Source of the DNA: a virus
Virus genome (UHGV): UHGV-1372970
Length of the DNA stretch: 64,000 bases
Strand: one strand, 5' to 3'
Shown here: piece after piece, positions 890-51,210 of the stretch
Position numbering within the stretch: position 1 is the first letter of the stretch
Layout of the letters: each line of letters starts with the position of its first letter
Notes under the pieces: model-generated
Told to the model about the DNA's origin: nothing
What the model saw: only the letters and a program-made list of their open reading frames with translations
Databases searched by the model: none
Position numbers and translations under genes: made by a program

Positions 890-975
890 GGCGTTTCTTA
901 TAGTAAATGTTTACTTATTATTGCGCCAGTTTAAAGCTCTGGCGCAGGCATGAAAGTTTTTTTTAGCGGGAGTTG

Positions 976-1953
976 TTACCAGGAACCCCAGAGAGGGTTT
1001 TTTGCGATGAGGGCGTTGACCTCTGCGTTTCTAATGGCTTCACGGACGTGAGCAAGGGCATAGCTCTTACCTTCCGCAATCGCAGAAGATTTATTGTAAC
1101 CTTGGCGTGTGATGATATTGCTCGGCTTCGTAAAAAGACCACCGAAGCTCTTGGACACTGCCTTAACAGCTTCCAGCTCGACCATGTCGCCATCGACTTC
1201 CCACAGTAGCTGCCGGTCGATGCTTTCGTTGAAACGCGTCTTCGCTGAAGCACTATTATTGGCGAATATCAAATCGACAATCCCAGGTGGCGAATTGAGA
1301 CTGAATGACCGTGAGTAAGTTGGGGCCTCGAACACGCTCATTGTCGATGCGGTTGTGGCTTTTAATTCTTCGTCACTAACGACAGGCGGTATTTCAGGCA
1401 TCACAGCCACGACTCTCGTCAGCGACATTTCCACCGACCGAAGAATCTCTGCATGGTCTGGTGATGACAGCGCACTAGATACGCTCATGAATTTTGCGAA
1501 GTTCTTTACCGCGTTGCTGCCCACGTATTGCTCATAATCTTCTGCCTTAATCATCACTGATCGCTCATAGACAGAGATTGCTGGTCGTGGTCTGCTCATC
1601 AGAAATACGCCCTGATACACCTTCGCCTTGAGATAGTCCTCGGACACGTCGGACAAATCGACGATCACATAAATCTCAAAATTGCGGTCGATAGTAACGG
1701 TCGATGAAACGTAAATCCACGGCTCGTCTTTCGTCGCGATGGTTACGGGCATTTTGAGGTCGATGCGCTTTGCACCTTCCTCACACGCCTTTTGGATTAT
1801 CTTCTCGATGTCCTGACCGTTAAATACATCCCCCGCATCAGCTACCGCCTTTCTGACAGCATCATCAATGCTCTTGATTAACATGTGCTCTCCTTTGTTT
1901 TTTGTGGATCTTATACAAAATAATAAGTAAATGCTTATCTTTTTGTCGGTCAA
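976..1953 (-). CDS. Hypothetical protein in the replication module, 325 aa
   Basis: ORF track. Start is translationally coupled with the primase stop (overlap 1950-1953). Confidence 0.45.
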   Translation of the reverse strand: MTDKKISIYLLFCIRSTKNKGEHMLIKSIDDAVRKAVADAGDVFNGQDIEKIIQKACEEGAKRIDLKMPVTIATKDEPWIYVSSTVTIDRNFEIYVIVDLSDVSEDYLKAKVYQGVFLMSRPRPAISVYERSVMIKAEDYEQYVGSNAVKNFAKFMSVSSALSSPDHAEILRSVEMSLTRVVAVMPEIPPVVSDEELKATTASTMSVFEAPTYSRSFSLNSPPGIVDLIFANNSASAKTRFNESIDRQLLWEVDGDMVELEAVKAVSKSFGGLFTKPSNIITRQGYNKSSAIAEGKSYALAHVREAIRNAEVNALIAKNPLWGSW

Positions 1954-3065
1954 AGCAGTGCTTTAATCCCGTGGAGTTTCGCCATCATTTCGAGCATTTT
2001 GGTGTATGGCTTCGCTCGATAGTACGCTTTGAGAACCTGCTCAACCGTTGCGTCGCCTGGGTCCAGTCCTTCCTCCCCAAGACACGCGATCTTCACCCGC
2101 AATCCGATACCAACCAATCGCCTGGCTGCTCCGAATGTGTTGTGTATTGCCTGCTTCTCGGAGTCCCACATCATGACGACGGTTTCAAGCCCCTGCTGCT
2201 TCAGCTTGAGGAATGCACCCAGCTGATCGTCAGCATCCCCATCGAGCGTGCCGGATAAGTGCATACCGAACGTTCCTACCGGCTCTACAAACTCTCTCAG
2301 CGTCTCTTCCTCAAAAAGCGCACGCTTGATACCCATAACGTCGAAAGCCCCCTCAGAAACGATTACAGTGCGTTTCCCGATGGCGTTGTGTCCGTTGTAG
2401 AGGAACTTGCCCGATGCTGGTAGCGATATTGGGAAGAGATAGCGTCGATCTGACTCGCCAGTGATGTCACGTCCCTGGTACGTGCGCATCTTCCCGTCCA
2501 GATCATAAATTGGTATCAGGATACGCATATCGAAGGATTGAATGTGCGGCCGGCCATTACGTTCATCGAGATAGACGTGTGTGCCTTCCACGCAGTATCG
2601 CAGGTCAAAATAGCTGGCCAACTCCGGGGAAATGACACGCTCAACGAGGTATGTGGGTAACTGGCCTTCGATTGGCAGCTGGTAATGCGGCGGAAGGATT
2701 ACTTCAGAAGTCAGTTCGACATCGGACTTCAGCTCGACCTCTTCCTCTTTCGGGCGCCAGCCCTGCTGCATCAGCTCGTTCCGAATGTAACGCTCAACGC
2801 CGCGCCACGTTTCGCCGGTGTGGTATTTGATAAAGCTCAGCTTGTTAAACTGGACTTCCTCGGGATGATCACCCGCGAAGCACTTTCCCAGACCGGTTGT
2901 CAGATTGAAGTAAACCTTCCACTTACTGCTTTTACAGCATGGGCATTCACGGATGTTAACTTCCCGGCCTTTGGCTGTCCTTGAGCCACGTCGATATGAG
3001 ATGCCTTCAGTATCAAGCCACTGCTCAAAGTCGAACTCTTCTAATAGCTCTTTTAAATCTGACAT
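1950..3065 (-). CDS. DNA primase (N-terminal zinc-ribbon plus TOPRIM domain)
   Basis: N-terminal CPCCKSSKW...GKCFAGDH zinc-binding motif. TOPRIM-like acidic motif TVIVSEGAFDVMG and later DSEKQ. Sits directly downstream of the DnaB-type helicase gene. Confidence 0.7.
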   Translation of the reverse strand: MSDLKELLEEFDFEQWLDTEGISYRRGSRTAKGREVNIRECPCCKSSKWKVYFNLTTGLGKCFAGDHPEEVQFNKLSFIKYHTGETWRGVERYIRNELMQQGWRPKEEEVELKSDVELTSEVILPPHYQLPIEGQLPTYLVERVISPELASYFDLRYCVEGTHVYLDERNGRPHIQSFDMRILIPIYDLDGKMRTYQGRDITGESDRRYLFPISLPASGKFLYNGHNAIGKRTVIVSEGAFDVMGIKRALFEEETLREFVEPVGTFGMHLSGTLDGDADDQLGAFLKLKQQGLETVVMMWDSEKQAIHNTFGAARRLVGIGLRVKIACLGEEGLDPGDATVEQVLKAYYRAKPYTKMLEMMAKLHGIKALL

Positions 3066-3200
3066 GTGATAAACCTTGCATTTGACCGGCCATCAATTAA
3101 TATGGCCGTACATGTGTTTTCTTTTGTTGTTTTAACAACAAAGAAAACTTGAATTTCTGATTTGAAATTAAGGCGGTCCGTTTTGGAACGCCTTTATTTT

Positions 3201-4600: not shown

Positions 4601-5347
4601 TTATGATTCGTCTTCGTAGGCGCTCAAATACAGATCTCTCGCGTCTTCAATCAGGCTGGGATAGCGTTTCGCGGCCACTACTTCAGGTATCAGCTTTCGT
4701 AGGTATACGGCTGACAGGAGGCCATTCACGCGAGAGGATGGTTTCATCGCATCGATGTGCCGGATAACCCACATGCAGTAATCTTTCTGCATTTCCGGGG
4801 CCACCAGCTGCGGCATGTTGTGATAGCTGAAGATACTATCGTCGATGCGGATCTGTGAGCGACGGGCCAGTTTCTGCTCGAATATCTCGACAAGGTCGTC
4901 TTGCCAAAGATGCTGGGGTCGTGGGAGATTCGCCCATAGACGCTGCGCCGCGATGCTGAGTACCGTTGAGATGTAATAGTCATACGAACAGCAATACTTA
5001 TCCGCAAACTGACGAGCACGCCAAAGGGACGTCTTAACGCCCATTCCGTGATCCTGATACGCAACACGCTTCAGACCAATGCGGTATGGTGCTCGCTGGA
5101 AGTCTTCGCGGCCGTGCGTGAGCATGATGCGTGCGTACTCGACCTTATAGATTTCAGAGAACAGGCAGGTAGCGACCAGTGGGTGCATGTTGCGGTAGTC
5201 GAACCACTTCGTCGCAAACAGTTCAGTCTCACCGGCGCAGCGGGACAGTCCAATGTTCTCGGATACCCACCTGTCCATGTCGGAGGTCGACATCTCTCGC
5301 ATGAACTTGTACTTCTCGCCGTCTGGTGTGTTTAATAATCGCTCCAT
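4601..5347 (-). CDS. Hypothetical protein, 248 aa (possibly a helicase loader or replication accessory protein)
   Basis: ORF track; no recognisable motif. Position is immediately downstream of the helicase. Confidence 0.4.
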   Translation of the reverse strand: MERLLNTPDGEKYKFMREMSTSDMDRWVSENIGLSRCAGETELFATKWFDYRNMHPLVATCLFSEIYKVEYARIMLTHGREDFQRAPYRIGLKRVAYQDHGMGVKTSLWRARQFADKYCCSYDYYISTVLSIAAQRLWANLPRPQHLWQDDLVEIFEQKLARRSQIRIDDSIFSYHNMPQLVAPEMQKDYCMWVIRHIDAMKPSSRVNGLLSAVYLRKLIPEVVAAKRYPSLIEDARDLYLSAYEDES

Positions 5348-5675
5348 GTCTAAATAAGCTCTTACTTACTACTTGACACAGATGATAAACGCTGGCGTGG
5401 GGTTTTGAAAGCGGAAAAGACAGGTTGTTTAGGGGGTTGGGTGAGGCTTGAACCGGAACCTTATAGAGATTCCTTCGTACCCCATAATATTTAAAAACAA
5501 AAGAGAGATATATAATAACTACCAGAGCAAGGTCTTTTAATAACACCCCAGACACAAAGAATAAGGCGCCAAAAGCGCCTTATTCTGTTGGTATTCTGGT
5601 GCTTTAATTAACCTGGCTCCAGATAGTATTTAAAGCTCTTTTTAAAATCTTTTAATTAAGGGGTACAAGCCGATG

Positions 5676-7027: not shown

Positions 7028-7300
7028 ATGCCCACTTTGAAAAAAGAACGTATCGATATACGACTGACCGATGAAGCTAAGTCAGTCATTGAGGAAGCGG
7101 CGATCTTGTCCAATCTAAGCGTGAGCCAGTTTGTGATAAGTAGCGCAGCAGAAAGAGCCACAGAGGTGATTGAGCAGCATCGCAGAATCGTTTTGTGCGA
7201 AGATTCCTGGAAATTGGTGATGGATGCCATCAACAACCCAGATCAACCGAATGACAGAATGAAACGAGCTGCTGAGCGCCTTAAAAATTTAAGGACCTGA
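7028..7300 (+). CDS. DUF1778/RHH-type antitoxin (TacA-like)
   Basis: 90 aa. Characteristic ...DIRLTDEAKSVIEEAAILSNLSVSQFV... ribbon-helix-helix. Stop codon lies 4 nt before the GNAT toxin start. Confidence 0.75.
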   Translation: MPTLKKERIDIRLTDEAKSVIEEAAILSNLSVSQFVISSAAERATEVIEQHRRIVLCEDSWKLVMDAINNPDQPNDRMKRAAERLKNLRT

Positions 7301-7304
7301 TAGC

Positions 7305-7823
7305 GTGAACACGTATGATATTGAACCAATACAGAAAGATTTTCCATACGACATTAGCTCCTTCGACTGCGGTAACGAGGCGCTAAATTTATTCCTGTCA
7401 GAACATCTTCAAAGACAGGACGAAAAGCAGATTCTGCGTGGATACGTATATCTTGAGTATGGATCTGGCTTACCAAAAGTGCTTGGCTTCTTTACTTTGG
7501 CCGGTGGGTCGTTTGAGAGAAGCCGATTTCCGTCCAAAAGCCAGCAGAAGAAAATTCCTTACACTAATACCCCATGCATAATCTTAGGGCGACTGGCTGT
7601 TGACAAAACAATCCAGCGACAAGGTATCGGGGAAATGCTGGTAGTCAAGGCTGCTAAAATAGTTCTCCAATCCGCTAACGCAATAGGTCTTCACGGTATG
7701 TTTGTTGATGCGAAAAATGATGATGCCTGTAAATTTTATGAGAATTTAGGGTTTACTAGGTTGATTGGTGATAATGAAAACCTATTCTTTTACCCTACAT
7801 CCAAAATTGCACAGCTCCCATAA
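7305..7823 (+). CDS. GNAT acetyltransferase toxin (TacT/AtaT/KacT-like)
   Basis: GTG start. GNAT motif A (QRQGIGEMLV), ...KFYENLGF... and the size (172 aa) fit aminoacyl-tRNA-acetylating TA toxins. Adjacent to the DUF1778 antitoxin. Confidence 0.75.
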   Translation: MNTYDIEPIQKDFPYDISSFDCGNEALNLFLSEHLQRQDEKQILRGYVYLEYGSGLPKVLGFFTLAGGSFERSRFPSKSQQKKIPYTNTPCIILGRLAVDKTIQRQGIGEMLVVKAAKIVLQSANAIGLHGMFVDAKNDDACKFYENLGFTRLIGDNENLFFYPTSKIAQLP

Positions 7824-7953
7824 AGTCTTTTAATTTACGACGGCTCTGGTGGCTACGAGTGAACAGTTTTACAAAATAATGAATTTACATCAAATTTACG
7901 TGCATTTCTTTGAAAGTAAAATTATCTAAAAGTGTTACTGAAAGGGGGCAACT

Positions 7954-8163
7954 GTGGCAACAACGGTGTATTTTGAAGAAACTATCTTGGATCAGGGAGG
8001 CGACCTGTCAATGGAATTAGAAATTGGTCGCTCTTCATTCTACCCTGAAGACAGCATTTACATTATTGTCGATGGCAAAACCGTAATAATGGACAGAAGC
8101 ACGGCCAAGAGATTTGTTGAGTCCATTGTTTCTCTCGGCCACTATCATGGCATGATTGAGTAA
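7954..8163 (+). CDS. Hypothetical small protein, 69 aa
   Basis: ORF track only. Confidence 0.3.
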   Translation: MATTVYFEETILDQGGDLSMELEIGRSSFYPEDSIYIIVDGKTVIMDRSTAKRFVESIVSLGHYHGMIE

Positions 8164-8637: not shown

Positions 8638-9347
8638 TGCGCCACACCTCGCTGATACTTCCGAACCTGGGAAATAGCAATGAATACCGCCACCGCAATT
8701 GTGGCAATACCGAACACAATGCGGATCGTATCGCCACTGGTCATATTCCCTTGAGCCTTATCCATCGCCGCGCTGATCTGCGGAGCGGCGTCAGCCAGCT
8801 GCGCCAGGCCAATGCCTGCCGTCATCGTTGCGCCGGCTGTTTCCTTAGTGACAGGAATTGAGCCTGTTTTCTTAACCGGCTTCACGACACCAGCGCGACG
8901 GAGGCCTTCCTCGATCACATCCAGGTTGTACCAGGTGTTCTCAGTACGTAGTGGGCCTTTGCCGTTTTCATGGCGAATAATCGCCTCCACGGTCGGTCGC
9001 ATGATTTCGTACTGATGGAGGTCGATTTCCATATCCGGGGAGACGCCTACCGCTTTAGCGACAGCTTGAACATAGGCTTCGGTGTCGTTTTCACTCGGCG
9101 GCGCCCATCGTTCAACGACCTCGCGGATCGTGTCGATGCGAGAACCGTCCTTCGCCTTCCGCTTGTCGTGGTAGGTGATGAGTGTGACGGCCAGCGCACG
9201 CACACCCCACGTTGGATCTTTGAAGGTGGCAAAGCGAGGCTCTGCCGGGTTGTTAACCAGACCTTGCCACGGATTCGTGTTATCAAGGTTGCCTGGGTTG
9301 TTGTTGCGTATTCCTCTTGGAGTCATCCTTTTCCCCTTAGTTTCCAA
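8634..9347 (-). CDS. Putative endolysin/muramidase with a C-terminal transmembrane anchor
   Basis: 237 aa. N-terminal GIRNNNPGNL...W motif that I recall from phage lysozyme-like lysins (unverified recollection). C-terminal hydrophobic helix IVFGIATIAVAVFIAI. Position between holin and spanins. Confidence 0.45.
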   Translation of the reverse strand: METKGKRMTPRGIRNNNPGNLDNTNPWQGLVNNPAEPRFATFKDPTWGVRALAVTLITYHDKRKAKDGSRIDTIREVVERWAPPSENDTEAYVQAVAKAVGVSPDMEIDLHQYEIMRPTVEAIIRHENGKGPLRTENTWYNLDVIEEGLRRAGVVKPVKKTGSIPVTKETAGATMTAGIGLAQLADAAPQISAAMDKAQGNMTSGDTIRIVFGIATIAVAVFIAISQVRKYQRGVAQ

Positions 9348-9651
9348 TACCGCTTTTTACGCCATACGCTGCCAGTCCCAGCAGCAAGGCGGTGATCAGG
9401 AAAGAAGTGACCTTAGACACTACCCCACCGAAAAAGCCGCTTGAAATGGCATCCATTCGGTTCAGTAATTTGTCCAGGTTGGCGTGCTGAATGCTATGCT
9501 GGGTTGCGGTCATATCACCCAGGTATGCTTTCAGCCGCTTATCCACCTCTTCCCCAACCTCGTCGCGAAGCCCCTGCAGGACTTCTCGCGCGACAATTTG
9601 AGCGATGCGTTCCACTTCCTTGTGGCTCACACCGGGCGTTTCGTTTGACAT
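9337..9651 (-). CDS. Putative holin (small protein with a C-terminal transmembrane segment)
   Basis: 104 aa. Hydrophobic segment FLITALLLGLAAYGV. First gene of the lysis cassette; overlaps the endolysin start. Confidence 0.4.
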   Translation of the reverse strand: MSNETPGVSHKEVERIAQIVAREVLQGLRDEVGEEVDKRLKAYLGDMTATQHSIQHANLDKLLNRMDAISSGFFGGVVSKVTSFLITALLLGLAAYGVKSGIGN

Positions 9652-9713: not shown

Positions 9714-9731
9714 AGTAAGTAAATACTTACT
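9714..9731. promoter_or_regulatory. Late-type palindrome AGTAAGTAAATACTTACT upstream of holin
   Basis: Perfect inverted repeat AGTAAGTA/TACTTACT. Member of the recurrent TAAGTA-n-TACTTA family. Confidence 0.45.
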
Positions 9732-25859: not shown

Positions 25860-25888
25860 CCTTGAGTGCGAAACAAAACCTTATATTA

Positions 25889-25908
25889 ATAAGTAAACAC
25901 TTACTTAT
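25889..25908. promoter_or_regulatory. Late-type palindrome ATAAGTAAACACTTACTTAT between M stop and L start
   Basis: Inverted repeat ATAAGTAA/TTACTTAT. Overlaps the gpM stop codon, 30 nt upstream of the gpL start. Confidence 0.4.
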
Positions 25909-26243
25909 CAAGCCTCAAAAACTTGTCTAAGGGTACAAGTGATCTCCAAGTACCCTGGATACCGCTTAACAGTATGGGAATCACACACGCAGATAATTTT
26001 TTTATTGCGGGGTGTTGTCCAGAAGAACGACTCTACCGCCCCTCGCGCCATCAAGAAATCGTCAATGGCATTGCCGATCGCGTAAGGCTGTCGGAAGGTC
26101 AGAGACCATTCTTCTTTTATGCGGTTTAAACCCTGTGACTGGCGCTGCTCGTAGTCGTCGCCAAATTTCAGGACAGTAACTTCAGGCTTTATGGTTTTCT
26201 CAGACTCGAAGTCAGGGAACCAGGTGAATGTTTGTCTAGCCAT
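25908..26243 (-). CDS. Minor tail protein M-like
   Basis: 111 aa. Position between tape measure and L. Confidence 0.7.
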   Translation of the reverse strand: MARQTFTWFPDFESEKTIKPEVTVLKFGDDYEQRQSQGLNRIKEEWSLTFRQPYAIGNAIDDFLMARGAVESFFWTTPRNKKIICVCDSHTVKRYPGYLEITCTLRQVFEA

Positions 26244-30813: not shown

Positions 30814-30817
30814 TCCC

Positions 30818-31488: not shown

Positions 31489-31539
31489 TTAAAAATCCTT
31501 TTAAAACAGAGGGCCGTCCTGACCCTCTAAAATCTGCAA

Positions 31540-31791: not shown

Positions 31792-31793
31792 TT

Positions 31794-32285: not shown

Positions 32286-32325
32286 TCTTGGTAAACTCCT
32301 TTTACCGGTTTCGTCATCTTGACAG

Positions 32326-32347
32326 TAAGTAAGTATATACTTACTTA
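32326..32347. promoter_or_regulatory. Late-type palindrome TAAGTAAGTATATACTTACTTA upstream of major tail gene
   Basis: Perfect 22-bp palindrome roughly 40-60 nt upstream of the major tail start. Confidence 0.45.
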
Positions 32348-32435
32348 TTTAAGCATTGCAATATCATAAGTGCGCTTGGTATAAACTTAGAAGGGAAATG
32401 GGGGCCATCACCCCCGTAGCCAACTGCCTGCTTTT

Positions 32436-32876: not shown

Positions 32877-32968
32877 TTTTTAATCCGACCATTCCATTTT
32901 TATCTACTAATATTCAAAAGGTTCGAGCGGCCATGCAAACGAAAAAGCCGCACGAAGCGGCCAGGAAA

Positions 32969-34178: not shown

Positions 34179-34188
34179 TTGACCCGCC

Positions 34189-35447: not shown

Positions 35448-35488
35448 TTTCTATCCCTGAATGTGGGCGCCATATGACGCCCTTTTGG

Positions 35489-35932: not shown

Positions 35933-35944
35933 ATCTTTCCCTCA

Positions 35945-35998
35945 AAAAAAAAGGGCGGGCGCAAGCCCACCCGTTAATTAAGTAAGTATTTACTTACT
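35945..35998 (-). terminator. Rho-independent terminator/attenuator immediately after the major capsid gene, adjacent to a late-type palindrome (35979-35998)
   Basis: On the mRNA: CGGGUGGGC-UUGC-GCCCGCCC followed by U9, preceded by TAAGTAAGTATTTACTTACT. Lies between the MCP stop (36006) and the decoration gene start (35932). Confidence 0.55.
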
Positions 35999-36005
35999 AA
36001 TCTAA

Positions 36006-36878: not shown

Positions 36879-36907
36879 CTTTCATTTCCTTATGATTAAG
36901 ATGTTTG

Positions 36908-37780: not shown

Positions 37781-37792
37781 TCAAAAATCCTT

Positions 37793-39367
37793 TTATTCGT
37801 CATTACCCGGTTTCTTGGGTGATGTTTTCCCTGTTCCTTGGGACTTCTCTTGCCCAGTTTCTCGGGCTGTACCTTTATCATAAGTAAGTGCTAACTTACT
37901 TTCAACCCCCATAGGTTCATTTTTTGGAGGAAATTGCAATAAATCTTTCTCAATCTCCTTCATTTTCTCTTTCGGGAGGTTCGGGAAGATTTTATCAATC
38001 AGGATCTCCATCTGATAACGACGCACAGAATCCGGTGCCTGGAGCAATTGCAGGTTCTGGGCAACACTGAACTCGTCAGTCAGACCACGAATGTCGAAGC
38101 TCTCAGGGTACGCCACCAGCTCGTCATCTTCTGGCAGTTTGTCACCCATCCATGCAGTCACCAGCTTCATCAGCATTTCCTCGGCTCGCTGCAGGCGGCT
38201 TGATTTGTTGATAAGCAGACTATTCACTCGCTGGAAGTCATACAGCTTGGCCGCGCCGCTGGAGTTGTCGATACCCTTAGCGTTGTCCTGCTTCGTCCGC
38301 TCACCAGCCACGCCGACAGAGTGATAGATCTCATTGATGATCTGCTGAACGGTCGAAATAATCATGCTCGCCTGTTTCGGGTCCGGCGACAGGTAGAATG
38401 GTTGCGCTCCGTTTTCGCCGTCGTAGGTGAAGACGCGCTTCGTACCAAACTCCAGCACTTTTTTGTGGTTCTCGTCGCCAGGCAACAGCGACTGAACAGG
38501 GATGGCCAGCTGGGAAAATGTCTGATCCTGGATGATGGCATCGAGGTTAGACAGATAGTTCGCCACGGCACGGTCGAGGTAAGCGATGTCATCAATAAGC
38601 GACGGGCTGAAATACTGCGACTCACTCTGCCCCATACAATCGACCGGGAATACCGGAACCATGCCGAGGCCATGCGAACCGTAATCTTCCAGAATCACCT
38701 TCGCTCGATTGCCGGCGCGTGAGCCCTTTTTCTCTTCACGGAACAGATACCAGTCGGTCTTTGTCCATAAACGGTAACGAAGGAACTCTTTGCCGGAGGA
38801 TTTGAAAGGGTCAGAGTCATCACGACCGATTTCGCAGATCAGAATCCAGCTCAGATTACCCTCTTCATCCCACGCGCAATCCAGCATCTGCTGTGGCGAT
38901 ACCCAATAGGCGTAAGCGCGGCCGTCAGATTTCTTCTGATCCTCTTTCGACTCAATTTCACCCGATACAGTGCTATCCACGACAACCCAGATACGACCGT
39001 AAATTGATGACTGCAGGTCGACTTCGGCCATGAAGTCATCGATATTCATGTTCTGGCGTGTTGCACGTTTCCAAAAGTCTTTTACAGATTGCGGCGCGTC
39101 GTCCTCGCAGCGGTGAATATCCTCTTTAAACAGGTATTTGTTGATGAGGTTCACTACTTCGCGAGTGTGGTTAAACCGGTAAGCACGCTCCAGTCGCTCT
39201 TTAAATTCAGCATCCCCCTCTTTGAAGTAGCGGAAGATGTTGTCTTTAAACCATGTACGGCCACCAGCGTAAGTGGCCGCGATGAAGTCCCAATGCGCTT
39301 TGCGCGTTTCGTAATCAGGATGGCGACGGTTCACCAGATCCTGAATCATTTTAGTAGACAATTCCAT
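37793..39367 (-). CDS. Portal protein
   Basis: 524 aa, immediately downstream of terL. Acidic/basic disordered C-terminus. Confidence 0.75.
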   Translation of the reverse strand: MELSTKMIQDLVNRRHPDYETRKAHWDFIAATYAGGRTWFKDNIFRYFKEGDAEFKERLERAYRFNHTREVVNLINKYLFKEDIHRCEDDAPQSVKDFWKRATRQNMNIDDFMAEVDLQSSIYGRIWVVVDSTVSGEIESKEDQKKSDGRAYAYWVSPQQMLDCAWDEEGNLSWILICEIGRDDSDPFKSSGKEFLRYRLWTKTDWYLFREEKKGSRAGNRAKVILEDYGSHGLGMVPVFPVDCMGQSESQYFSPSLIDDIAYLDRAVANYLSNLDAIIQDQTFSQLAIPVQSLLPGDENHKKVLEFGTKRVFTYDGENGAQPFYLSPDPKQASMIISTVQQIINEIYHSVGVAGERTKQDNAKGIDNSSGAAKLYDFQRVNSLLINKSSRLQRAEEMLMKLVTAWMGDKLPEDDELVAYPESFDIRGLTDEFSVAQNLQLLQAPDSVRRYQMEILIDKIFPNLPKEKMKEIEKDLLQFPPKNEPMGVESKLALTYDKGTARETGQEKSQGTGKTSPKKPGNDE

Positions 39368-39385
39368 TTGTCATATCCTTACGTT

Positions 39386-39401
39386 AGTAAATACTTACTT
39401 A
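39386..39401. promoter_or_regulatory. Late-type (imperfect) palindrome AGTAAATACTTACTTA between terL stop and portal start
   Basis: Family motif with one mismatch. Overlaps the terL stop codon. Confidence 0.35.
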
Positions 39402-40655: not shown

Positions 40656-41245
40656 TAGTCATCCCCCTCGTCGTCTTCATCGAACGCATCCAGCATCTCA
40701 ACGTCATCGACCAGATTATCCTCGTCCATTTTCTTGAGTTCGCTAACCTGGGCTGATGTCAGCTCACCGAAGACCAAATTCGGGATCTCGTCACTGATGT
40801 CATCGTCTTTTTCCAGACCTAACGCACGACTGGTCACGTCAAAGCATTTCTGAATGACCGCACTGGCTCGCTGAAGCGATTTGATGTTGTCCTCAATGAG
40901 CGCCAATGGCTTACCCTCTCGGGTGGCACTCAGAACCTCTTTCATGGTCAAGCGGCCGATGTTTTGCGCCCAGGTATCGTAGGATTCTTTTCGTTCTTCG
41001 ATTTTCTGCGCACGTGCACGTGCACGGATTTCTGCATCCGATTTAAGCGACTCGCGGATCATCTCACCGACACTGTCTGAGCCTTTGGCGATACCCTTCT
41101 TTTTGAAGTACCGCGAGAAGGTTTCAGAGCGCGTGCCGTACTCTTCTTCGAGCATTGATAAGGTGTATTCGCCGGAGCGCCACTTAGCCTCAATCTCTGC
41201 CCACTGCGCCGGAGACAGGCGCGGTTTTTTGGCGGTTTCTGTCAT
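40655..41245 (-). CDS. Terminase small subunit (HTH DNA-binding N-terminus, acidic C-terminus)
   Basis: 196 aa, immediately upstream of terL with overlapping stop/start. N-terminal ...LSPAQWAEIEAKWRSGEYTLSMLEEEYG... HTH. Confidence 0.6.
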   Translation of the reverse strand: MTETAKKPRLSPAQWAEIEAKWRSGEYTLSMLEEEYGTRSETFSRYFKKKGIAKGSDSVGEMIRESLKSDAEIRARARAQKIEERKESYDTWAQNIGRLTMKEVLSATREGKPLALIEDNIKSLQRASAVIQKCFDVTSRALGLEKDDDISDEIPNLVFGELTSAQVSELKKMDEDNLVDDVEMLDAFDEDDEGDD

Positions 41246-41280
41246 AGTTCCCTCTAATTCCGCTCGGCATCTTCCTGACG

Positions 41281-41303
41281 CCTTAAAACAAATTGTTTTC
41301 TGG
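41281..41303. promoter_or_regulatory. Early-type operator element CCTTAAAACAAATTGTTTTCTGG upstream of terS
   Basis: Member of the dispersed AAACAAnTTGTTT element family. 36-58 nt upstream of the terS start codon. Confidence 0.45.
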
Positions 41304-41414
41304 TGGTAGTTGTTTACTAAGCAACCAAAAAACTAAAAAAACAGAGCCGTGCTCTGGATATTTATATATCTGGCAGTTCTTCTTTTAAAAACATACAGAA
41401 TCAGGCTCTTTCAA

Positions 41415-41681
41415 CTACACCAGCAGCATTTTTGCTTTTGCTCTGCCCAAGATAGTCAGCCCCAGCGTCCGACGATGATGCAGCGTTTCGCCCCGCGGCC
41501 GACAGTCGTGCTTTTCAACCAGTCCCTTTTTGATGAGCGCACGTAGAGAAAACTGCATACTCTGCTTGGAGGTTCGGTATGGCAGGATCTCCAGCAACTC
41601 ATCCAGATCGAGAAGATGCCCACGCTCATAACCGAGACTGATTGTTTTGATGATGTCTTTTTGCTTTGATGTCAGGTTCAT
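41415..41681 (-). CDS. Small winged-helix DNA-binding protein (putative regulator)
   Basis: 88 aa. ...KQKDIIKTISLGYERGHLLDLDELLEILPYRTSKQSMQFSLRALIKKGLVEK... wHTH (MarR/TrmB-like) pattern. Confidence 0.4.
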   Translation of the reverse strand: MNLTSKQKDIIKTISLGYERGHLLDLDELLEILPYRTSKQSMQFSLRALIKKGLVEKHDCRPRGETLHHRRTLGLTILGRAKAKMLLV

Positions 41682-41690
41682 TTTGTATCC

Positions 41691-42581
41691 TTACAAAATT
41701 TTCGTTAAATCCAGCGGCGCATCCAGCGGCTGGTTATCAAATGCCAGAAGCGGTAAAACGTCCGGCAGCTGGCGACCGAAGTCTGGGTTCCGATACACGC
41801 CATACAGAGGGCTGGTGAAGCTCAGTGTGTGAATATCCTTCAGCAGCTTCACAATACTGCTCTCGTCAGTCAGCGAGTCAGCAATGTCCTGTACTGTCGT
41901 TCCGCGGTTTCGGCCAGCTTTAGCCAGACTTGAATTTTTGTGGTAGTTCGCAACCAGATCATGCAATGCACGTTTCCTGCGCCCCTCCGCCATTTTAAGC
42001 AGCTCTTTCACCACAGACTCGTTATCGCCAGGGTCAGCTCTGAAATGGCGCTGGAAGACTTTTAGAGCGCTTTCGTAGGAGCGTGGTCGTTCTGGTTTGA
42101 TAAACTGGAACCCTGCTTTCATAGCGAACGGGTTGTATTTGCTCATCGACGACTGAACTTCCAGAATTGGCTTGTCGTGCATACGACTGGCAATATTCAT
42201 GAACCGGTACGAAAGCCCCAGCCCACGGTACTGCGTATCGGCCACCAGACGACTGACAACGGCGAACTCCTGATTCACGCGCTTACCCCAGATCTGATTA
42301 GCCTCTTTCGTGTTCGACGTTGGCTTAATGTCTGGGAACATGCGGTGGCGCGGCGCCAGCAGCAGCTTCGGATAGGCCATAACCAAAACACCGATAAGAC
42401 GGCCGTCAAGTTCGGCGCGATAGTAGGATGGTGCGAACGGCTTGCCGTCTGTTTTGTAGTGCAACCCTTTCAGCGCGTTCCAATCCTCAACCGTCCCTCT
42501 CTTCACCACGATGCGCTCCATGAAATCCAGATGGCGCGGGAACTCTTCAGGCTGGTGGTGCGTGATAACTACATCGTTCAT
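41691..42581 (-). CDS. GNAT-fold acetyltransferase-like protein (296 aa)
   Basis: GNAT motif A ...VSRLVADTQYRGLGLSYRFMN... preceded by hVLVMAYP beta strand. Long C-terminal helical extension. Confidence 0.4.
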   Translation of the reverse strand: MNDVVITHHQPEEFPRHLDFMERIVVKRGTVEDWNALKGLHYKTDGKPFAPSYYRAELDGRLIGVLVMAYPKLLLAPRHRMFPDIKPTSNTKEANQIWGKRVNQEFAVVSRLVADTQYRGLGLSYRFMNIASRMHDKPILEVQSSMSKYNPFAMKAGFQFIKPERPRSYESALKVFQRHFRADPGDNESVVKELLKMAEGRRKRALHDLVANYHKNSSLAKAGRNRGTTVQDIADSLTDESSIVKLLKDIHTLSFTSPLYGVYRNPDFGRQLPDVLPLLAFDNQPLDAPLDLTKIL

Positions 42582-43135
42582 CGCTTCATCACCTTTCTGA
42601 CACTCTCGAACCCACCCTGGCGAATCGTATGAGGATCTCGTGTTACGATTGAGGCGATCGGGGGCAAGCCACCGGCTTTCTTATCAGCCTTAAACTGACG
42701 AAATGCCGCATCGAGCATTTCCGCGACGTAGCCCTGTAGATAGGTGATGGCTTCCTGATCGGACAGATGTACACCGTGAGATTCAGCCGTCGACATCGCG
42801 ACGTGCAATGCTTCATGCCACAGTGTTTTCTCGTCCTGACTGTCTGGCAGGAACACACCATGCACAGAGCGATCGGCTTCGAAGTAACCCATATCAGTGA
42901 CCCAGCCGCCCACGTCATCAATGAACTGGCTGTCATCCACTCCGTATAGCTGTTTCATGGTTTCGACATAACGAGCGGCGCCGAAGACAACCACGCAGCG
43001 ACTGTAATAAGGCGCCACGCGGAAACCGTATGCACCGTGCGCTCTCAGCCATTCACGCCATTCGCCTTCAGTGGTGAAGCGGCGCCGCAGCTGGGCGCCC
43101 TCGAAGATTGGAAAAACCTTGCTATCAATGCTCAT
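42578..43135 (-). CDS. HExxH zinc-metallopeptidase-like protein (SprT/ImmA-like, 185 aa)
   Basis: ...TLWHEALHVAMSTAESHG... HExxH motif with downstream acidic residue. Overlapping start/stop with neighbours. Confidence 0.45.
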   Translation of the reverse strand: MSIDSKVFPIFEGAQLRRRFTTEGEWREWLRAHGAYGFRVAPYYSRCVVVFGAARYVETMKQLYGVDDSQFIDDVGGWVTDMGYFEADRSVHGVFLPDSQDEKTLWHEALHVAMSTAESHGVHLSDQEAITYLQGYVAEMLDAAFRQFKADKKAGGLPPIASIVTRDPHTIRQGGFESVRKVMKR

Positions 43136-43766
43136 AGTCCACCTTCACACGTTCTTTGTAGTGCTTGGTGATCTGCACAGACGGACGCAGCGCGTTCTTT
43201 AAATCTTCGTGCGTGGTAGCGACGATAACCGTTGCGCCGGCAGCGCGGGCGGCACGCTGTAGGTTCGACGCAACAACCTGCGCCGTGACACGGTCAAGAA
43301 CGGCTCCAAATTCGTCAGCTACCCAGACATCAGCCCCGGACTCAATCAGCTTGGCGATTTTGAGACGGTACTTTTGACCGTCCGACATCTCAGACGGCTT
43401 CCGCACAAACAGATAGGCATCATTCAAGCCGGCCATGGACAACAGGCCCAGCGCGTCGCTGGTGGTTTTCCCCAACTGGTCTATTACGTTGGTATCGTCC
43501 CGAAAGACGAAGTCATCAATGGACGCAACAGTTTGACCGTTTTTCGCCATCAAACTCTGTAGCTCACGCAAAATAACGGACTTACCGGAACCAGACTGAC
43601 CTGTCACGTAAACGACGTCGCCGCCTGCAATATCCAGCTCAAGGTTGTCATAGAGAGTCCACTCTTTTTCCTCCAGACCCAGGCCAAACGACTCTGCAAT
43701 CTCCAACGTGCGGATCGTTTTATTGACCCGCGTGTTAAAGGCAACGTTGATAAGGTACTTACCCAT
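43125..43766 (-). CDS. Small ABC-type ATPase (about 214 aa). The tracked ORF 43125-44000 is probably N-terminally over-extended.
   Basis: Walker A GQSGSGKS. ABC signature MSDGQKYRL. Walker B VWVADEFGAVLD. H-loop TTHEDL. Internal ATG at about 43764-43766 (MGKYLINVAF...) gives an 8-nt overlap with the upstream ParB-like stop. Confidence 0.6.
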   Translation of the reverse strand: MGKYLINVAFNTRVNKTIRTLEIAESFGLGLEEKEWTLYDNLELDIAGGDVVYVTGQSGSGKSVILRELQSLMAKNGQTVASIDDFVFRDDTNVIDQLGKTTSDALGLLSMAGLNDAYLFVRKPSEMSDGQKYRLKIAKLIESGADVWVADEFGAVLDRVTAQVVASNLQRAARAAGATVIVATTHEDLKNALRPSVQITKHYKERVKVDYEH

Positions 43767-44439
43767 GCTCCGTCGCTCCTTCGGAGATTTTCGCAGCATA
43801 AGCGAGGAAGGCAGCTTCACCCATAAGACCGGTTTCGTCTTCCATCCACGCCAGCAAATCACCCACCACGATTGCATCGCTGGTCGGGACATCTTTAAAG
43901 CCCAGAATATCGACGATACGAGTGCGGCCACCTGCGACCTCTTCCGTAATCGACTTGTGCTCTTCGCGCTGGCGCTCTGCCTCTTCGTTGAGATCGTCAA
44001 TCAGCGTGTCATCGGCCATCTTTTCAGTGAGATCTTCGATAAACACCTTCAGCTCGCGATCCTCAAAACCGTAAATATCGACACCATCATCCTGAAGCAG
44101 CTCGGTCAGCTCTTCCTGCATACGAACTGCGTCATAATCGATACTGGCGAGTCGGTTGTCTTCGAGGCGCTTAGCGCGTACAGCGCTTTCTGACAGGTCA
44201 TCACGAACGATGACGGGAACAGTAGCAAGCCCCGCCAGCAGTGCGGCTTCACGTCGGCCGTGACCGGTGATGATCACTCGATGCTTATCAACGGTGATAG
44301 GCTGGTCGAACCCGCGGCTTTTGATGGCAGCGGCCAGGTCTTTGATCTGGCGTTCATCATGTTTTTTCGCGTTTTTCTCATACGGGATGAGCGTGCGCGG
44401 GTCTAAATATTTAATTTTAAACGACTTTTCCATCGACAA
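43759..44439 (-). CDS. ParB-N (ParB/Srx nuclease-like) domain protein with acidic C-terminus
   Basis: ...ITVDKHRVIITGHGRREAALLAGLATVPV... ParB box II-like GxxRxxA motif. Confidence 0.65.
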   Translation of the reverse strand: MSMEKSFKIKYLDPRTLIPYEKNAKKHDERQIKDLAAAIKSRGFDQPITVDKHRVIITGHGRREAALLAGLATVPVIVRDDLSESAVRAKRLEDNRLASIDYDAVRMQEELTELLQDDGVDIYGFEDRELKVFIEDLTEKMADDTLIDDLNEEAERQREEHKSITEEVAGGRTRIVDILGFKDVPTSDAIVVGDLLAWMEDETGLMGEAAFLAYAAKISEGATEHG

Positions 44440-45130
44440 CGTCCTTGTAATATTGAGTCAGCCATACCAGGGCCTCGCCAGCGTCTTCCATGTCGCTGCC
44501 TGTCTTAATACCCTGTTCACGGATAATGGTTTTTACGATTTCAGTGACACCTTCAGCGGTATCAAAAGAAACCTTAAAACGCATGGTCTGGTGCTCCACG
44601 CCGAGGCGCTCTTTCGTTTCACGGGGGTCTGCCTCCGCTACACTGTCACCTTCCTCACCCAGCAATCCCAGCTCTTCGAGGTCGATCCGGGACTCACGCG
44701 CCAGCGTTGCCGTCAATTCCTCGTCATATGGGGCGATTTCAGCCAGCGAGTAGTCGATTTCAGCCTGAATACTCTCAATCAGACGCTGAAGCTCGACCGC
44801 ATCGTCCTCACCGTAACGCTCGTTATCGACCAGAGACATTTGCTTAGCGACGTTGTCCTCAACGACGCCCACTGATGTCACCGGCACTGAAGCCATGCCC
44901 TGCTCAATAGCAGCACGCCAGCGGTGTTCTCCGCCGAGGATCTGATAGGTGCCATCTTCCATATCGCGAACGAGGATCGGCTTGAAGAAACCGAGACGGT
45001 CGATTGAGTTTTTCAGCTTGTCGAAGTTTTGCGCACCGACAACATTCGTATTCCAGGGGTTAGGCCGCAGCTGGGCTGTCTCCACCGTCAAAATACTAAT
45101 TTTAACGTCCATATTTTTGATACAATCCAT
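44417..45130 (-). CDS. ParB-N domain protein (paralogous to downstream gene)
   Basis: ...ILVRDMEDGTYQILGGEHRWRAAIEQGMASVPV... ParB N-terminal domain motif; acidic middle region. Confidence 0.65.
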   Translation of the reverse strand: MDCIKNMDVKISILTVETAQLRPNPWNTNVVGAQNFDKLKNSIDRLGFFKPILVRDMEDGTYQILGGEHRWRAAIEQGMASVPVTSVGVVEDNVAKQMSLVDNERYGEDDAVELQRLIESIQAEIDYSLAEIAPYDEELTATLARESRIDLEELGLLGEEGDSVAEADPRETKERLGVEHQTMRFKVSFDTAEGVTEIVKTIIREQGIKTGSDMEDAGEALVWLTQYYKDVVDGKVV

Positions 45131-45135
45131 TTAGT

Positions 45136-45152
45136 AAGTAGTTACTTATATA
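45136..45152. promoter_or_regulatory. Late-type palindrome TAAGTAGTTACTTA in the divergent ParB-cluster/helicase promoter region
   Basis: Perfect TAAGTA-GT-TACTTA. Lies in the 65-bp gap between divergent genes. Confidence 0.4.
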
Positions 45153-45195
45153 GAATACCCAATTAGCATAAATAAGGCACGAAGGAAATTAAAAA

Positions 45196-46773
45196 ATGAC
45201 AGTCAGGATTGTTTTTGACGCAGTCAACGCCATCGTCAAAGGGGCAGATGACGACGTTAATCTAAAAATACAGAAAATGCTTAGTTACGACGTGGATGGC
45301 GGTCGATACAGTGGCGGCGATAGTGGCTGGAATGGTCAGAGCACCATGTTCAGTTGGGCTAACGGTGTGTTTCCCGCGGGATTTGCGCGAGCCGTCGCTG
45401 CAGATCTTGGTCGGTCTGGAGTTAAGTGCGCTCTTGTCAGGAAAGAACTCACTAAGCCTCTCGGTAAGCCAAACCCTGTAGTAAGCCCATTCCCATACAA
45501 CCCAGATTACGCTTACCAAGATGAAACGTGCGAGCGTCTGGTTCGTTTTGGCGGAATGATCGCGCAAGTGGCTACCGGTGGCGGGAAATCTCAAATAGCG
45601 TGTAAGGCGGCTGCGCGGATTGGTCGCATGACGCTGTTTATCACCACGCGGTCTATGCTCATGTACCAGATGCAGGAAAATTTTCAGGAATCAATGGATT
45701 ACCGCGCCTCACATGGTGAGCCATGGCTGGAGAATGAAAAGGTTGGTGTCATCGGCTCTGGTGAACTGAAGTTCTCTCGCTTCATTAACGTGGCGACTGT
45801 TCAGACGCTCTCCAGCTTTCTGAGTGAGCCTGGCCGGGATTTAAGTAAAGAGAAGCGCGACTTCCATCTTCGTCGTCGCGAACTCATCAAAAAGATGCTG
45901 GCCAACGTATCTCTACTGATTCTCGAAGAGGCGCACGAGGCATCAGGCGAAAGCTTCTATGAAATAGCCCGGCTCTGTAAAAATGCGGATTATCGTTTAG
46001 CGCTGACAGCAACGCCCTTCATGAAGGACAGCACCGAAGCGAACATGCGACTGATGGCCGTATCTGGTCGAATAGAGATCAAAGTGTCTGAAAAATATCT
46101 GATTGATAAAGGTATTTTGGCAAAACCCTTTTTCCTTTATCGTAAAATCGGTTACGTTCCTGATACTGAACGGCTTAACAAGGAATTAACAGGCAAACAT
46201 GTAAACTTCCGCGTAAGCATGACGACAGCGTATCAGAAGGCATATCAGCTCGGCATCACATATAATCTGGCTCGAAATAGCGCGATTGTTGACACCGCCG
46301 TGACCTTTAAGCAATTTGGTTTAAGCTGCATGACGCTGGTTAGGCATGAAAGACACGGGCAGATACTGAAAGAAATGCTGGAGCAAAGAGGTTTAGTAGC
46401 GAGTTTTATCAATGGGAAATCTTCAGCAGCAACGCGATCGGCCAAGCTGATTGAACTTGCTACAGGAAAGATTGACGTACTGATAGGCTCAACGATTCTG
46501 GATGTGGGTGTAGACGTCCCGAGCGTAGGATCGGTAATCATGGCTGGTGGCGGAAAAGCGGAAGTGGAGCTTAGACAGCGTGTGGGGCGAGGTCTTCGCA
46601 AAAAGAAAAACCAGGCTAACGTCTGCTTCGTTGCAGATTTTCTGGACACATCCAACAAGCACCTCATGTCACACTCCTACGAGCGGAAAAACATCATCGA
46701 GACGACGCCCGGGTTTGCGGAAGGTCTTCTTGGGATTGATGGTAAATTCGACTTCTCGATTCTCGCGTCTTAA
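45196..46773 (+). CDS. Superfamily-2 (DEAD/DEAH-like) helicase
   Basis: Motif I TGGGKS. DEAH-like LILEEAHE. Helicase C motifs ...VLIGSTILDVGVDVP... and ...QRVGRGLR... Confidence 0.8.
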   Translation: MTVRIVFDAVNAIVKGADDDVNLKIQKMLSYDVDGGRYSGGDSGWNGQSTMFSWANGVFPAGFARAVAADLGRSGVKCALVRKELTKPLGKPNPVVSPFPYNPDYAYQDETCERLVRFGGMIAQVATGGGKSQIACKAAARIGRMTLFITTRSMLMYQMQENFQESMDYRASHGEPWLENEKVGVIGSGELKFSRFINVATVQTLSSFLSEPGRDLSKEKRDFHLRRRELIKKMLANVSLLILEEAHEASGESFYEIARLCKNADYRLALTATPFMKDSTEANMRLMAVSGRIEIKVSEKYLIDKGILAKPFFLYRKIGYVPDTERLNKELTGKHVNFRVSMTTAYQKAYQLGITYNLARNSAIVDTAVTFKQFGLSCMTLVRHERHGQILKEMLEQRGLVASFINGKSSAATRSAKLIELATGKIDVLIGSTILDVGVDVPSVGSVIMAGGGKAEVELRQRVGRGLRKKKNQANVCFVADFLDTSNKHLMSHSYERKNIIETTPGFAEGLLGIDGKFDFSILAS

Positions 46774-47236: not shown

Positions 47237-47770
47237 ATGAACAAGACAGATTTCACATACGGAATTAATGCAGAGAAGGAAAGAGATCTCTCATTAACTA
47301 TGGGGTATTTTAAACATCTCCAGAGCAAAAGATTACCTGTAAGGGTCGTGGCAGCTGATGGGCAGGCTTTCTCAATGCGAGTGACTGGGTTCGACCTACG
47401 GTCAAGTCGCATCTACTTCTCACCCTTTACTGATGACGCCAAGGCGAATCGCGTCATCATACCAGCCGAGTATATAATCTCCGCAGAGGTGATTGACGCC
47501 TCAGAAGTAGACACAATCCATAAAGGCCAGCTGACGTTGAGGCGTGGTGATTTTGAAGACAATGGCTACATTCGCTCAGGCAGAGACTTCTTTCAGGTAA
47601 TTCGTTACGCATACCAGCAGGGCAAGCCTATAAGGGTCTATCTGTCCGATAACCGAGTATTGGAAGGTGTATCAACCGGCATGAATGAGCAATCAGTCGG
47701 CTTAAGGCTTTCTAACAACAAAACCATCCAGCTATACTATGATTGGGTCGACCGTATTGTCCCCCTTTAA
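47237..47770 (+). CDS. Hypothetical protein with an internal tandem duplication of a roughly 60-aa beta-rich unit
   Basis: Two similar segments: ...LPVRVVAADGQAFSMRVTGFDLRSSRIYFSP... and ...KPIRVYLSDNRVLEGVSTGMNEQSVGLRLSNN... Confidence 0.4.
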   Translation: MNKTDFTYGINAEKERDLSLTMGYFKHLQSKRLPVRVVAADGQAFSMRVTGFDLRSSRIYFSPFTDDAKANRVIIPAEYIISAEVIDASEVDTIHKGQLTLRRGDFEDNGYIRSGRDFFQVIRYAYQQGKPIRVYLSDNRVLEGVSTGMNEQSVGLRLSNNKTIQLYYDWVDRIVPL

Positions 47771-49046: not shown

Positions 49047-49053
49047 CAAGACA

Positions 49054-50313: not shown

Positions 50314-50544
50314 TTATCGCAATAGCCAGTTAAGGCGCTTATTGAACTCTAAAATTTGCCTGGTCGTTAACTTTTTGGCCAGCATCCATTCATCTATCTC
50401 TTTCTGAATGGCTCGCTGGGCGTCAATTCGCTCGTCACTGAGGGACGGAAAAGAGAAAACAGATAGTCTGAAGCGTCCGGCGATGTACTGACAAAATTCT
50501 TCTTGCTCAGGTCGTGCGATTGGAGATGCGTTGTGAAAAATCAT
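50314..50544 (-). CDS. Hypothetical small early protein, 76 aa
   Basis: ORF track. Confidence 0.4.
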   Translation of the reverse strand: MIFHNASPIARPEQEEFCQYIAGRFRLSVFSFPSLSDERIDAQRAIQKEIDEWMLAKKLTTRQILEFNKRLNWLLR

Positions 50545-50643
50545 CTTTGTTGCCGAAAATTAGTGATGAAGTCCGCAAATATTATAACTGTTTAAAAAAT
50601 GTAAAAGCCACCAATACTGGTGGCTCAATAAATAGCCTCTAGG

Positions 50644-51111
50644 TTAAGCGGCCGGCTCGGTGGCGGTTTCGGTGCCGTCGGCTTTCAGAACGTCTTCAGG
50701 TAACAGCTCGGTCAGCGCTTCGCCGGAATAAATCTTCATACCGTAGACACCCATCCAGGTGCTGCCGGCAGCAAGGTTCCCATCGATGAAGTCCAGGACC
50801 TCAGAAATCAGGCTTTCGGTCAGAGTAACGGTGTCTTTGCGGAAGAATGCTTCTGCGGCCACCAGCAGCGCGTCGCCGCCGTCGTTAATCATCTGCTGCC
50901 CTACGGTGTAGACTTTCTGCTTATTGGAACGCAGAACGGTACGAGACAGCTGGGTAGACAGTTGAGTCGCCCCGGATTCATCACGCAACTGAATAGTCAG
51001 CGTAGCGATGCGATCGGCAGTCATAGGGTCAGTGTTAGATGCATAGAACAGGTCGTATACCAGATCGGTACGTTTTAGGCTCATAATTACCTCCATGTAG
51101 TTGAGCGGCAC
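50644..51111 (-). CDS. Hypothetical early protein (true start probably at about 51084, MSLKRTDLVYDL..., preceded by GGAGGT)
   Basis: ORF track. Strong SD before the internal ATG. Late-type palindrome GTAAGTAAACACTTAC at about 51126-51142 upstream. Confidence 0.45.
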   Translation of the reverse strand: MPLNYMEVIMSLKRTDLVYDLFYASNTDPMTADRIATLTIQLRDESGATQLSTQLSRTVLRSNKQKVYTVGQQMINDGGDALLVAAEAFFRKDTVTLTESLISEVLDFIDGNLAAGSTWMGVYGMKIYSGEALTELLPEDVLKADGTETATEPAA

Positions 51112-51210
51112 TAATCATATACTGGTAAGTAAACACTTACAATACAGGCACAAAAAAGCCCCAAAAGGATGAAGGGGCTGTAGAAATTTTTGTGACTACT
51201 AAGCACATGA

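Follow-up and report, generated by a model that had tools for sequence, protein, structure and literature searches.

Dispersed palindromes in an SSU5-like phage-plasmid as putative operators of a phage-encoded repressor

The window analysed here, a stretch of 64,000 nucleotides (nt) of the UHGV virus genome UHGV-1372970 in whose coordinates all site positions are given, carries portal, scaffold, major capsid, tail and holin-like genes as well as a primase/helicase region. Its structural region (30000-46000) is 98.7% identical to the Klebsiella oxytoca plasmid pCAV1099-111 (NZ_CP011594.1, 111,395 base pairs (bp)) and about 76% identical to Salmonella phage SSU5 across aligned segments covering 21% of the query. 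The element is therefore an SSU5-like phage-plasmid, of which our searches matched 642 and 862 plasmid records. The window is oriented as the reverse complement of the pCAV1099-111 record, so that its structural genes lie on the minus strand. Along it runs a dispersed palindrome, here called family 1, and the present analysis concerns the placement of this motif, its conservation and the protein that may read it. A literature search found no publication on the motif or on SSU5 gene regulation.

Family 1 is an 18–22 bp palindrome, AGTAAGT-N4-ACTTACT, which is often extended to TAAGTAAGT-N4-ACTTACTTA and whose four central bases tend toward symmetry (AAWT). A preliminary description had listed nine copies, all of which are present where it placed them. 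The form that it gave, TAAGTA-N(2-5)-TACTTA, is indeed enriched (four exact matches against 0.01 expected), but the core common to the sites is rather the longer one given above. For this core the window holds four perfect matches, one with one mismatch and eight with two mismatches, partly shadows shifted by 4 nt, compared with 0, 0 and 0.1 in second-order Markov simulations. Distinct sites at up to two mismatches number 10. A weight matrix built from the plasmid sites finds 11 in the window (Table 1), where chance would yield about 0.1, with 1922-1939 and 5353-5370 additional to the nine first listed; owing to the 4-bp periodicity of the motif (AGTA-AGTA), the matrix at times places a site 4 bp out of register. 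Across the whole of pCAV1099-111 there are 29 weight-matrix sites, against fewer than one in simulations. A census of all 5-mer palindromes, made with no motif preset, ranks TAAGT-N4-ACTTA first both in this plasmid and in the Escherichia coli phage-plasmid Cyrano, followed in second place by AAACAA-N-TTGTTT.

The sites are also strongly biased in position. The genome-wide scan with positional statistics that had been named as a check bore out a mainly intergenic placement: 27 of the 28 palindrome centres fall in sequence not annotated as a gene, in a plasmid that is 82% coding (binomial p = 3e-19). Within the window, 9 of the 11 sites are intergenic and the other two overlap gene 3' ends (portal and terL). 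The distance to the next start, first put at 20-110 nt, measures 2-102 nt.

Table 1. Family-1 sites and other mapped features of the window, with their counterparts in related elements (positions in the respective records)
Position	Strand	Sequence or feature	Setting	Counterparts
902..919	-	AATAAGT-AAAC-ATTTACT (minus strand)	12 nt upstream of the ATG of open reading frame (ORF) 434-889; TATAAG -10-like hexamer overlaps 3' edge; hairpin cgccagagctttaaactggcg just upstream of site	pCAV1099-111 61008
1922..1939	-	GATAAGC-ATTT-ACTTATT	37 nt upstream of ORF 976-1884; TATAAG 7 nt downstream	pCAV1099-111 59988
5353..5370	-	AGTAAGT-AAGA-GCTTATT	5 nt upstream of annotated start of ORF 4601-5347; no predicted promoter	pCAV1099-111 56557
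9714..9731	-	Perfect AGTAAGT-ATTT-ACTTACT	62 nt upstream of holin-like ORF 9337-9651	Cyrano 26660 (orthologous site)
25883..25911	-	Promoter TTGATA-N17-TAATAT; spacer is palindrome 25888-25905, AGTAAGT-GTTT-ACTTATT	34 nt upstream of minor tail protein L gene; also found in an independent promoter scan	Orthologues at Cyrano 15528, L019 10109, Acinetobacter 95758
32328..32345	-	Perfect; extended form TAAGTAAGT-ATAT-ACTTACTTA at 32326-32347	42 nt upstream of ORF 31794-32285 (tail-region gene); overlaps promoter-like TTGCAA-N18-TATACT (32361-32332)	Cyrano 9021
35981..35998	-	Perfect palindrome	Between major capsid gene stop (36006) and strong terminator; then weak -10 TAATTA	Cyrano 5446, L065 8649, L056 3296, Acinetobacter 85552
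35953..35972	-	Intrinsic terminator GGGTGGGC-TTGC-GCCCGCCC and T-run	Starts 8 nt past palindrome 35981..35998; best terminator match of an independent scan of a 20-kb region
37877..37905	-	Promoter TTGAAA-N17-TATGAT; spacer is palindrome 37883-37900, AGTAAGT-TAGC-ACTTACT	Inside portal gene 3' end, 102 nt upstream of scaffold (DUF6651) gene; top match of an independent 20-kb promoter scan (10/12 matches)	Cyrano 3526 (identical geometry)
39382..39399	-	AGTAAGT-ATTT-ACTAACG, degenerate 3' arm	Junction of terL stop and portal start, 14 nt upstream of portal ATG; no clear predicted promoter	L115 10583 and L065 4926 (clean promoters); Acinetobacter 81842
45133..45150		Family-1 site; on the plus strand TAGAAT (45151-45156) directly adjoins	65-bp divergent region between ParB-like operon (minus, ATG 45130) and DEAD-box helicase gene (plus, 45196)	Cyrano 105110, L115 3961, Acinetobacter 75204
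51124..51141	-	TGTAAGT-GTTT-ACTTACC; left arm forms the -35 of TTGTAA-N17-TATGAT	39 nt upstream of ORF 50644-51084
41415..41681	-	88-amino-acid winged-helix gene	Just upstream of terS; weak Pfam LexA_DNA_bind match (E = 1.5e-4, below curated cut-off)	Position conserved in L115, L065 and Acinetobacter
4582, 6751, 41286, 50190, 51600, 52130, 53866, 54398, 55647, 55940, 58481, 58532, 59537, 62033, 63519		AAACAA-N-TTGTTT 13-mers	Second palindrome family

Many of the palindromes are set within predicted host-type promoters. We scored -35 and -10 hexamers with spacers of 15-19 bp around every site in pCAV1099-111 and Cyrano (n=51). Promoters that overlap the palindrome and score at least 9 occur at 19 of the 51 sites on the gene strand and at none on the opposite strand (Wilcoxon p = 1e-4), and the median score is 8.6 at sites compared with 4.5 in motif-free upstream intergenic regions (p = 2e-4). 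Two geometries recur. In one, the palindrome forms the 17-bp spacer between TTGAnA and TAnnnT (window cases 37905-37877 and 25911-25883). In the other, its 3' arm, TTTACT or TTACTT, is itself the -35, as at 9714-9731; what had been noted for this holin site is right, since on the minus strand the right arm supplies the -35 TTACTT, followed after 17 nt by TATAAC preceded by TGG. A fixed-distance -10 immediately after the palindrome does not hold as a general rule: the flanking sequence is low in information and close to symmetric, and the geometry falls into two or more classes. An operator of MerR type, in which DNA distortion activates a promoter with an over-long spacer of 19-20 bp, was likewise rejected, as the spacers here are 17 bp and occasionally 16 or 18.

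Of the earlier suggestion that these are late promoters, the promoter part thus stands, given that the overlap with gene-oriented sigma-70-like promoters exceeds that on the opposite strand and in other intergenic regions, but the sites are not specific to late genes. Plasmid-wide, copies are likewise found ahead of nrdA, thyA, dam, sbcD and cobT/cobS and of genes for recombination, replication and the primase/helicase region; window sites 902, 1922 and 5353 fall in the primase/helicase region, and in Cyrano the motif likewise stands ahead of non-structural genes.

Processing stems for RNase had been a further suggestion. More broadly, the palindromes could act at the RNA level as hairpins that direct RNase processing, stabilise mRNA or control translation, and for such elements one may cite the palindromic sequence itself, the several copies just ahead of Shine-Dalgarno sequences or start codons, and the FljA-like protein encoded in the window, which belongs to a family of mRNA-binding repressors. 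However, comparison of the arms at 52 sites from two genomes yields neither covariation nor an excess of pairing. At the variable R/Y position the arm pairs are GC in 10 cases, AT in 14, GT in 10 and AC in 17, so that Watson-Crick pairing is observed 24 times where 25.2 would be expected for independent arms. Sense-strand mismatches of G:U type are as frequent as those of A:C type (41 and 42). The predicted RNA stems reach only -1.6 to -7.8 kcal/mol, several being no better than shuffled sequence, and an Rfam scan of the whole window matched no family. Moreover, across relatives with 24-55% protein identity the sequence is kept and the pairing is not. We therefore consider an RNA-level role very improbable. 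As the arms vary independently and the would-be stems are weak, the motif is better described as a duplex-DNA site for a dimeric protein; with its tendency to central symmetry, too, it fits a pair of half-sites that would be read by a dimer.

The motif is conserved well beyond the enterobacteria. In Cyrano it occupies orthologous gene junctions. A pattern scan of viral contigs (those cited here carry L numbers) retrieved contigs of 57-64% GC whose proteins are 24-55% identical to those of pCAV1099-111, with synteny preserved, and in which the same AT-rich palindromes sit at the helicase/ParB, terL/portal, scaffold/capsid, post-capsid and cobT/cobS junctions and at the one preceding minor tail protein L. 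These contigs probably stem from Rhizobiales hosts, judging by XRE homologues in Rhizobiales replicons of about 115-120 kb. Their promoters include TTGCAA-N17-TACAAT (L115 10583 and, as reverse complement, L056 7081), TTGTAA-N17-TATCAT (L065 4926) and TTGCTG-N17-TACAAT (L019 10109). Many of their sites read TAAGTAAG-YR-CTTACTTA, which contains both GTAAG/CTTAC spacings in overlapping registers. Three further contigs had clustered matches without synteny: those of L095 come from a low-complexity block of AGTA repeats, and L104 and L111 showed no link to any regulator.

The GC-rich relatives retain the TAAGT half-site. The Acinetobacter baumannii plasmid NZ_CP115646.1, which is syntenic, is dominated instead by the dispersed palindrome TCAGT-N4-ACTGA, with 24 copies against 0.13 expected; its consensus, AATCAGT-CAST-ACTGACT followed by TAnnnT, occupies the same junctions as family 1. 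A one-base change of the half-site throughout the regulon suggests a co-evolving, phage-encoded protein and counts against the host polymerase or a host factor as the reader of the site.

After the capsid gene of the window, palindrome, weak -10 and strong terminator all lie within 50 nt (35953-35998, minus), and the order palindrome, -10, terminator hairpin is kept in Cyrano, L065, L056 and Acinetobacter (Table 1); in the GC-rich relatives, -10 hexamers reading TATGAT or TACAAT abut the hairpin. This suggests a stop-and-restart arrangement in which a new transcript starts inside the 5' arm of the terminator. Transcripts arriving from upstream would end at the terminator, and those from the adjacent promoter would lack the 5' arm of the hairpin. 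The result is a compact layout, with a restart promoter immediately combined with the terminator that follows the capsid gene.

We propose that the family-1 palindromes are operators of a phage-encoded repressor, a putative assignment to which we give a probability of about 0.55. The binder is most plausibly the conserved XRE-family lysogeny repressor, a candidate that we name with lower confidence than the operator function itself. We infer both that the regulator represses, as opposed to activating, and which protein it is. The XRE gene lies beside the integrase gene in every lineage (71394-71699 in pCAV1099-111, outside the window; homologue CYRAN_45 in Cyrano). Its control region in pCAV1099-111 contains two palindromes of family-1 type, and in the K. 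pneumoniae, Yersinia, Salmonella, Enterobacter and Cyrano relatives RGTAAG-YA-CTTACC lies just past a TGTAATAT -10-like motif (around 1425-1450 in L009-L012; 42606-42619 in Cyrano). Comparable XRE-adjacent sites are found in L096, L070, L218, L221 and Acinetobacter. With L222 ambiguous, nearly all lineages examined combine an XRE gene with a palindrome of family-1 type, in its TAAGT or TCAG variant. An XRE homologue in a non-SSU5 context (L219) has no such palindromes upstream. Helix 3 of the XRE protein is strongly conserved: seven TAAGT lineages share K/E-N-x-N, and the two TCAG lineages have K-R-P-N or D-K-P-N there. The fourth position of G-[YF]-x-N-x-N is correspondingly Asn in the seven TAAGT lineages and Arg (Acinetobacter) or Lys (L217) in the TCAG lineages. 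A search of solved structures returned no match for the XRE protein.

In the mechanism that we envisage, a dimeric phage regulator would bind palindromes set in the core of the host sigma-70 promoters that head most lytic units. The bound dimer would keep RNA polymerase off these promoters, so that genes for replication, structure and lysis would not be transcribed while the element persists as a plasmid (the lysogenic state). Once the repressor is lost, every unit would come on directly, a single phage regulator thus controlling about 30 promoters. Expression in Cyrano lysogens is consistent with such a scheme: the XRE gene stands at about 96 against a background of 9.8, and the genes for scaffold and capsid, like cobT and nrdA, do not rise above it although their family-1 promoters are near consensus (S1 table, PMC9928086). 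Cyrano is inducible by ciprofloxacin. Among other genes expressed in the LF82 lysogens, CYRAN_43 (40268-40822, minus; homologue at 69605-70096 in pCAV1099-111), which adjoins integrase and repressor, stands about 700-fold above background. Pfam was uninformative for the lysogeny-expressed Cyrano proteins (CYRAN_43, 46, 40, 81, 102, 109, 117 and others), with no match for CYRAN_43.

Several observations weigh against a repressor operator read by the XRE protein. A convincing predicted promoter is missing at about half of the sites; in the window, 39382, 5353, 902 and the ParB side of 45133 lack a clear one and are 2-14 nt away from start codons. The XRE-adjacent palindrome of most enterobacterial relatives has N2 rather than N6 between GTAAG and CTTAC, which brings the half-sites 4 bp closer. 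A strict rule pairing the change of Asn to Arg or Lys with the A-to-C change of the half-site is broken by L218, which has Lys and TAAG-type sites. Silence in lysogeny is equally expected of activator-dependent promoters, and one repressor for some 30 promoters leaves lytic timing unexplained. Finally, the AAACAA-N-TTGTTT family must likewise have a binding protein, and it is this family that the XRE protein could recognise. That family is not among the enriched palindromes of the Acinetobacter plasmid, and since XRE gene and family-1-type palindrome occur together nearly everywhere, the pairing of XRE with family 1 is the more economical.

The main competitor is a phage activator of middle or late promoters, acting as Lpa does at the -22 box of phage P1, with the winged-helix protein encoded just upstream of terS as its candidate. 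P1 late promoters, which lack a -35, consist of the 9-bp inverted repeat AAGTnACTT centred near -22, 4 nt and TAnnnT, with the same AAGT/ACTT half-site letters and a similar distance to the -10; like family 1, they place a dispersed palindrome directly upstream of a TAnnnT -10 and ahead of morphogenesis and lysis modules, and P1 has 11 of them (PMC10695390). P1 lpa also lies just upstream of the packaging genes, where the winged-helix gene is placed here. Furthermore, the winged-helix gene and the target genes are alike at background in Cyrano lysogens (PMC9928086), and the sites mark module boundaries through the late region. However, at many sites the -35 and -10 hexamers are near consensus and 17 bp apart, which makes an activator unnecessary, and several sites lie only 2-15 nt from start codons, where they could not activate the genes that follow, which favours a repressor or roadblock. 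The recognition helix of the winged-helix protein is near-identical between enterobacterial and Acinetobacter elements although their operators differ, and it differs in the GC-rich relatives although the operator is the same. A search of solved structures gave this protein marginal LexA-domain matches only. In a tblastn search, P1 Lpa found nothing better than E = 0.56 in the window, pCAV1099-111 and Cyrano, which leaves room for remote homology. Membership in the P1 type of late promoter fails on the half-site spacing (N4 here, N1 in P1), on the -35 that is usually present here, on the Lpa homologue and on late specificity, the motif standing also ahead of non-late genes. A late-activator site, which had been among the first suggestions, is thus less likely than a repressor operator, and we regard it as rather unlikely.

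A different DNA-binding system could also be at work, either the two ParB-like proteins as a KorB-like global silencer or roadblock, or a host factor. The packaging operon begins with two genes that have ParB_N domains, right at the start of which every lineage carries a site; some sites, moreover, are promoterless and stand at gene junctions or ahead of a terminator. Yet the half-site is constant from Enterobacteriaceae to the hosts of the GC-rich relatives and changed in Acinetobacter, which points to a phage factor rather than a host one, and placement in promoter cores fits a classical operator better. We judge this alternative improbable. It is unlikely that the motif reflects a phage sigma factor, because enterobacterial members keep the palindromes and lack the extra genes that distant relatives have between the cobS-like gene and dnaE. 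These are two in number in L221 (14831-15487), the Acinetobacter record (23964-25412) and L217 (4746-5914), and one of the pair in L221 has a faint Sigma70_r2 match.

In its presumed working, the proposed repressor circuit comes closest to the C1 repressor network of P1. P1 is also a phage-plasmid, its single repressor acts at numerous operators that are scattered over the genome and overlap the sigma-70 promoters of distinct lytic units, and its record places the annotated C1 operators in or beside -35/-10 hexamers. The C1 operators are asymmetric. They appear in the record as 17-bp features, compared with the palindrome of 18-22 bp described here. The candidate repressor is a small XRE-type helix-turn-helix protein, unlike C1, and its binding is a prediction. 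The late genes of P1 are activated by Lpa and are not under C1 control, whereas in the present element copies of the one site stand ahead of structural and lysis genes as well. P22 Arc at Pant and the KorA/KorB regulons of RK2 likewise employ a dimer-sized palindromic operator between or over the -35 and -10 hexamers and reuse one type of site at many promoters of one mobile element. These proteins belong to different families, and the likeness drawn here concerns the layout. P1 itself has 45 transcription units (PMC10695390). A repressor described in the literature for a Roseobacter phage-plasmid was set aside, as it belongs to an unrelated 42-kb element.

A further-reaching version of the repressor model is one that we hold tentatively and regard as doubtful. 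According to it, one small XRE repressor would gate essentially every lytic unit through about 30 promoters, including some inside the late operon and one fused to the terminator of the capsid gene. There would be no early-to-late cascade for these genes, and lineages would become heteroimmune when the half-site shifts by one base from TAAGT to TCAGT and the recognition helix changes along with it.

The second palindrome family, AAACAA-N-TTGTTT, is evidently the early operator family of the preliminary description, which had called its distribution complementary to that of family 1. Within the window this roughly holds: there are 15 copies against 0.29 expected, mostly in the block of small genes at 50-64 kb, which contains 12 of them. 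They occur in two contexts: some form the upstream half of a promoter-like, conserved stretch, about 50 bp long, that ends in GATAATAAC, and others lie about 7 nt past that -10, in cATAAGA-AAACAAnTTGTTT-aAGGA just before the start codon. Upstream of cobT, this palindrome is found in the Yersinia, Salmonella, Enterobacter, K. pneumoniae and Cyrano relatives and a family-1 site in pCAV1099-111. The window also encodes, at 47237-47770 (+), a protein of 177 amino acids with a Pfam match to Flag1_repress (FljA, repressor of phase-1 flagellin; E = 5.7e-29) and a homologue in Cyrano, CYRAN_114. This FljA-like protein is a possible regulator, perhaps of the AAACAA-N-TTGTTT family.

Two coding features of the window deserve mention. 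A single ORF of 4144 amino acids (11326-23760, minus), annotated in pCAV1099-111 as 'phage tail protein', aligns weakly with the J-like host-specificity protein of relatives; its size is roughly threefold that of the J protein of Cyrano, which has about 1575 amino acids and is encoded by a 4728-bp gene. The HEPN-domain gene of pCAV1099-111 (record 53871-55058, 395 amino acids) corresponds to three shorter ORFs on the plus strand of the window at 7028-8163 (7028-7300, 7305-7823 and 7954-8163), and the copy in the window may be disrupted.

SSU5-like phage-plasmids are very common in Klebsiella, E. coli, Salmonella, Enterobacter and Yersinia, and phage-plasmids as a class often carry antibiotic resistance genes, according to one article (PMC9600943). 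For these elements the map of family-1 sites serves as a map of predicted promoters and probably outlines a regulon, and it points to a candidate protein-site pair. The natural switch in specificity from TAAGT to TCAGT could explain immunity groups among them.

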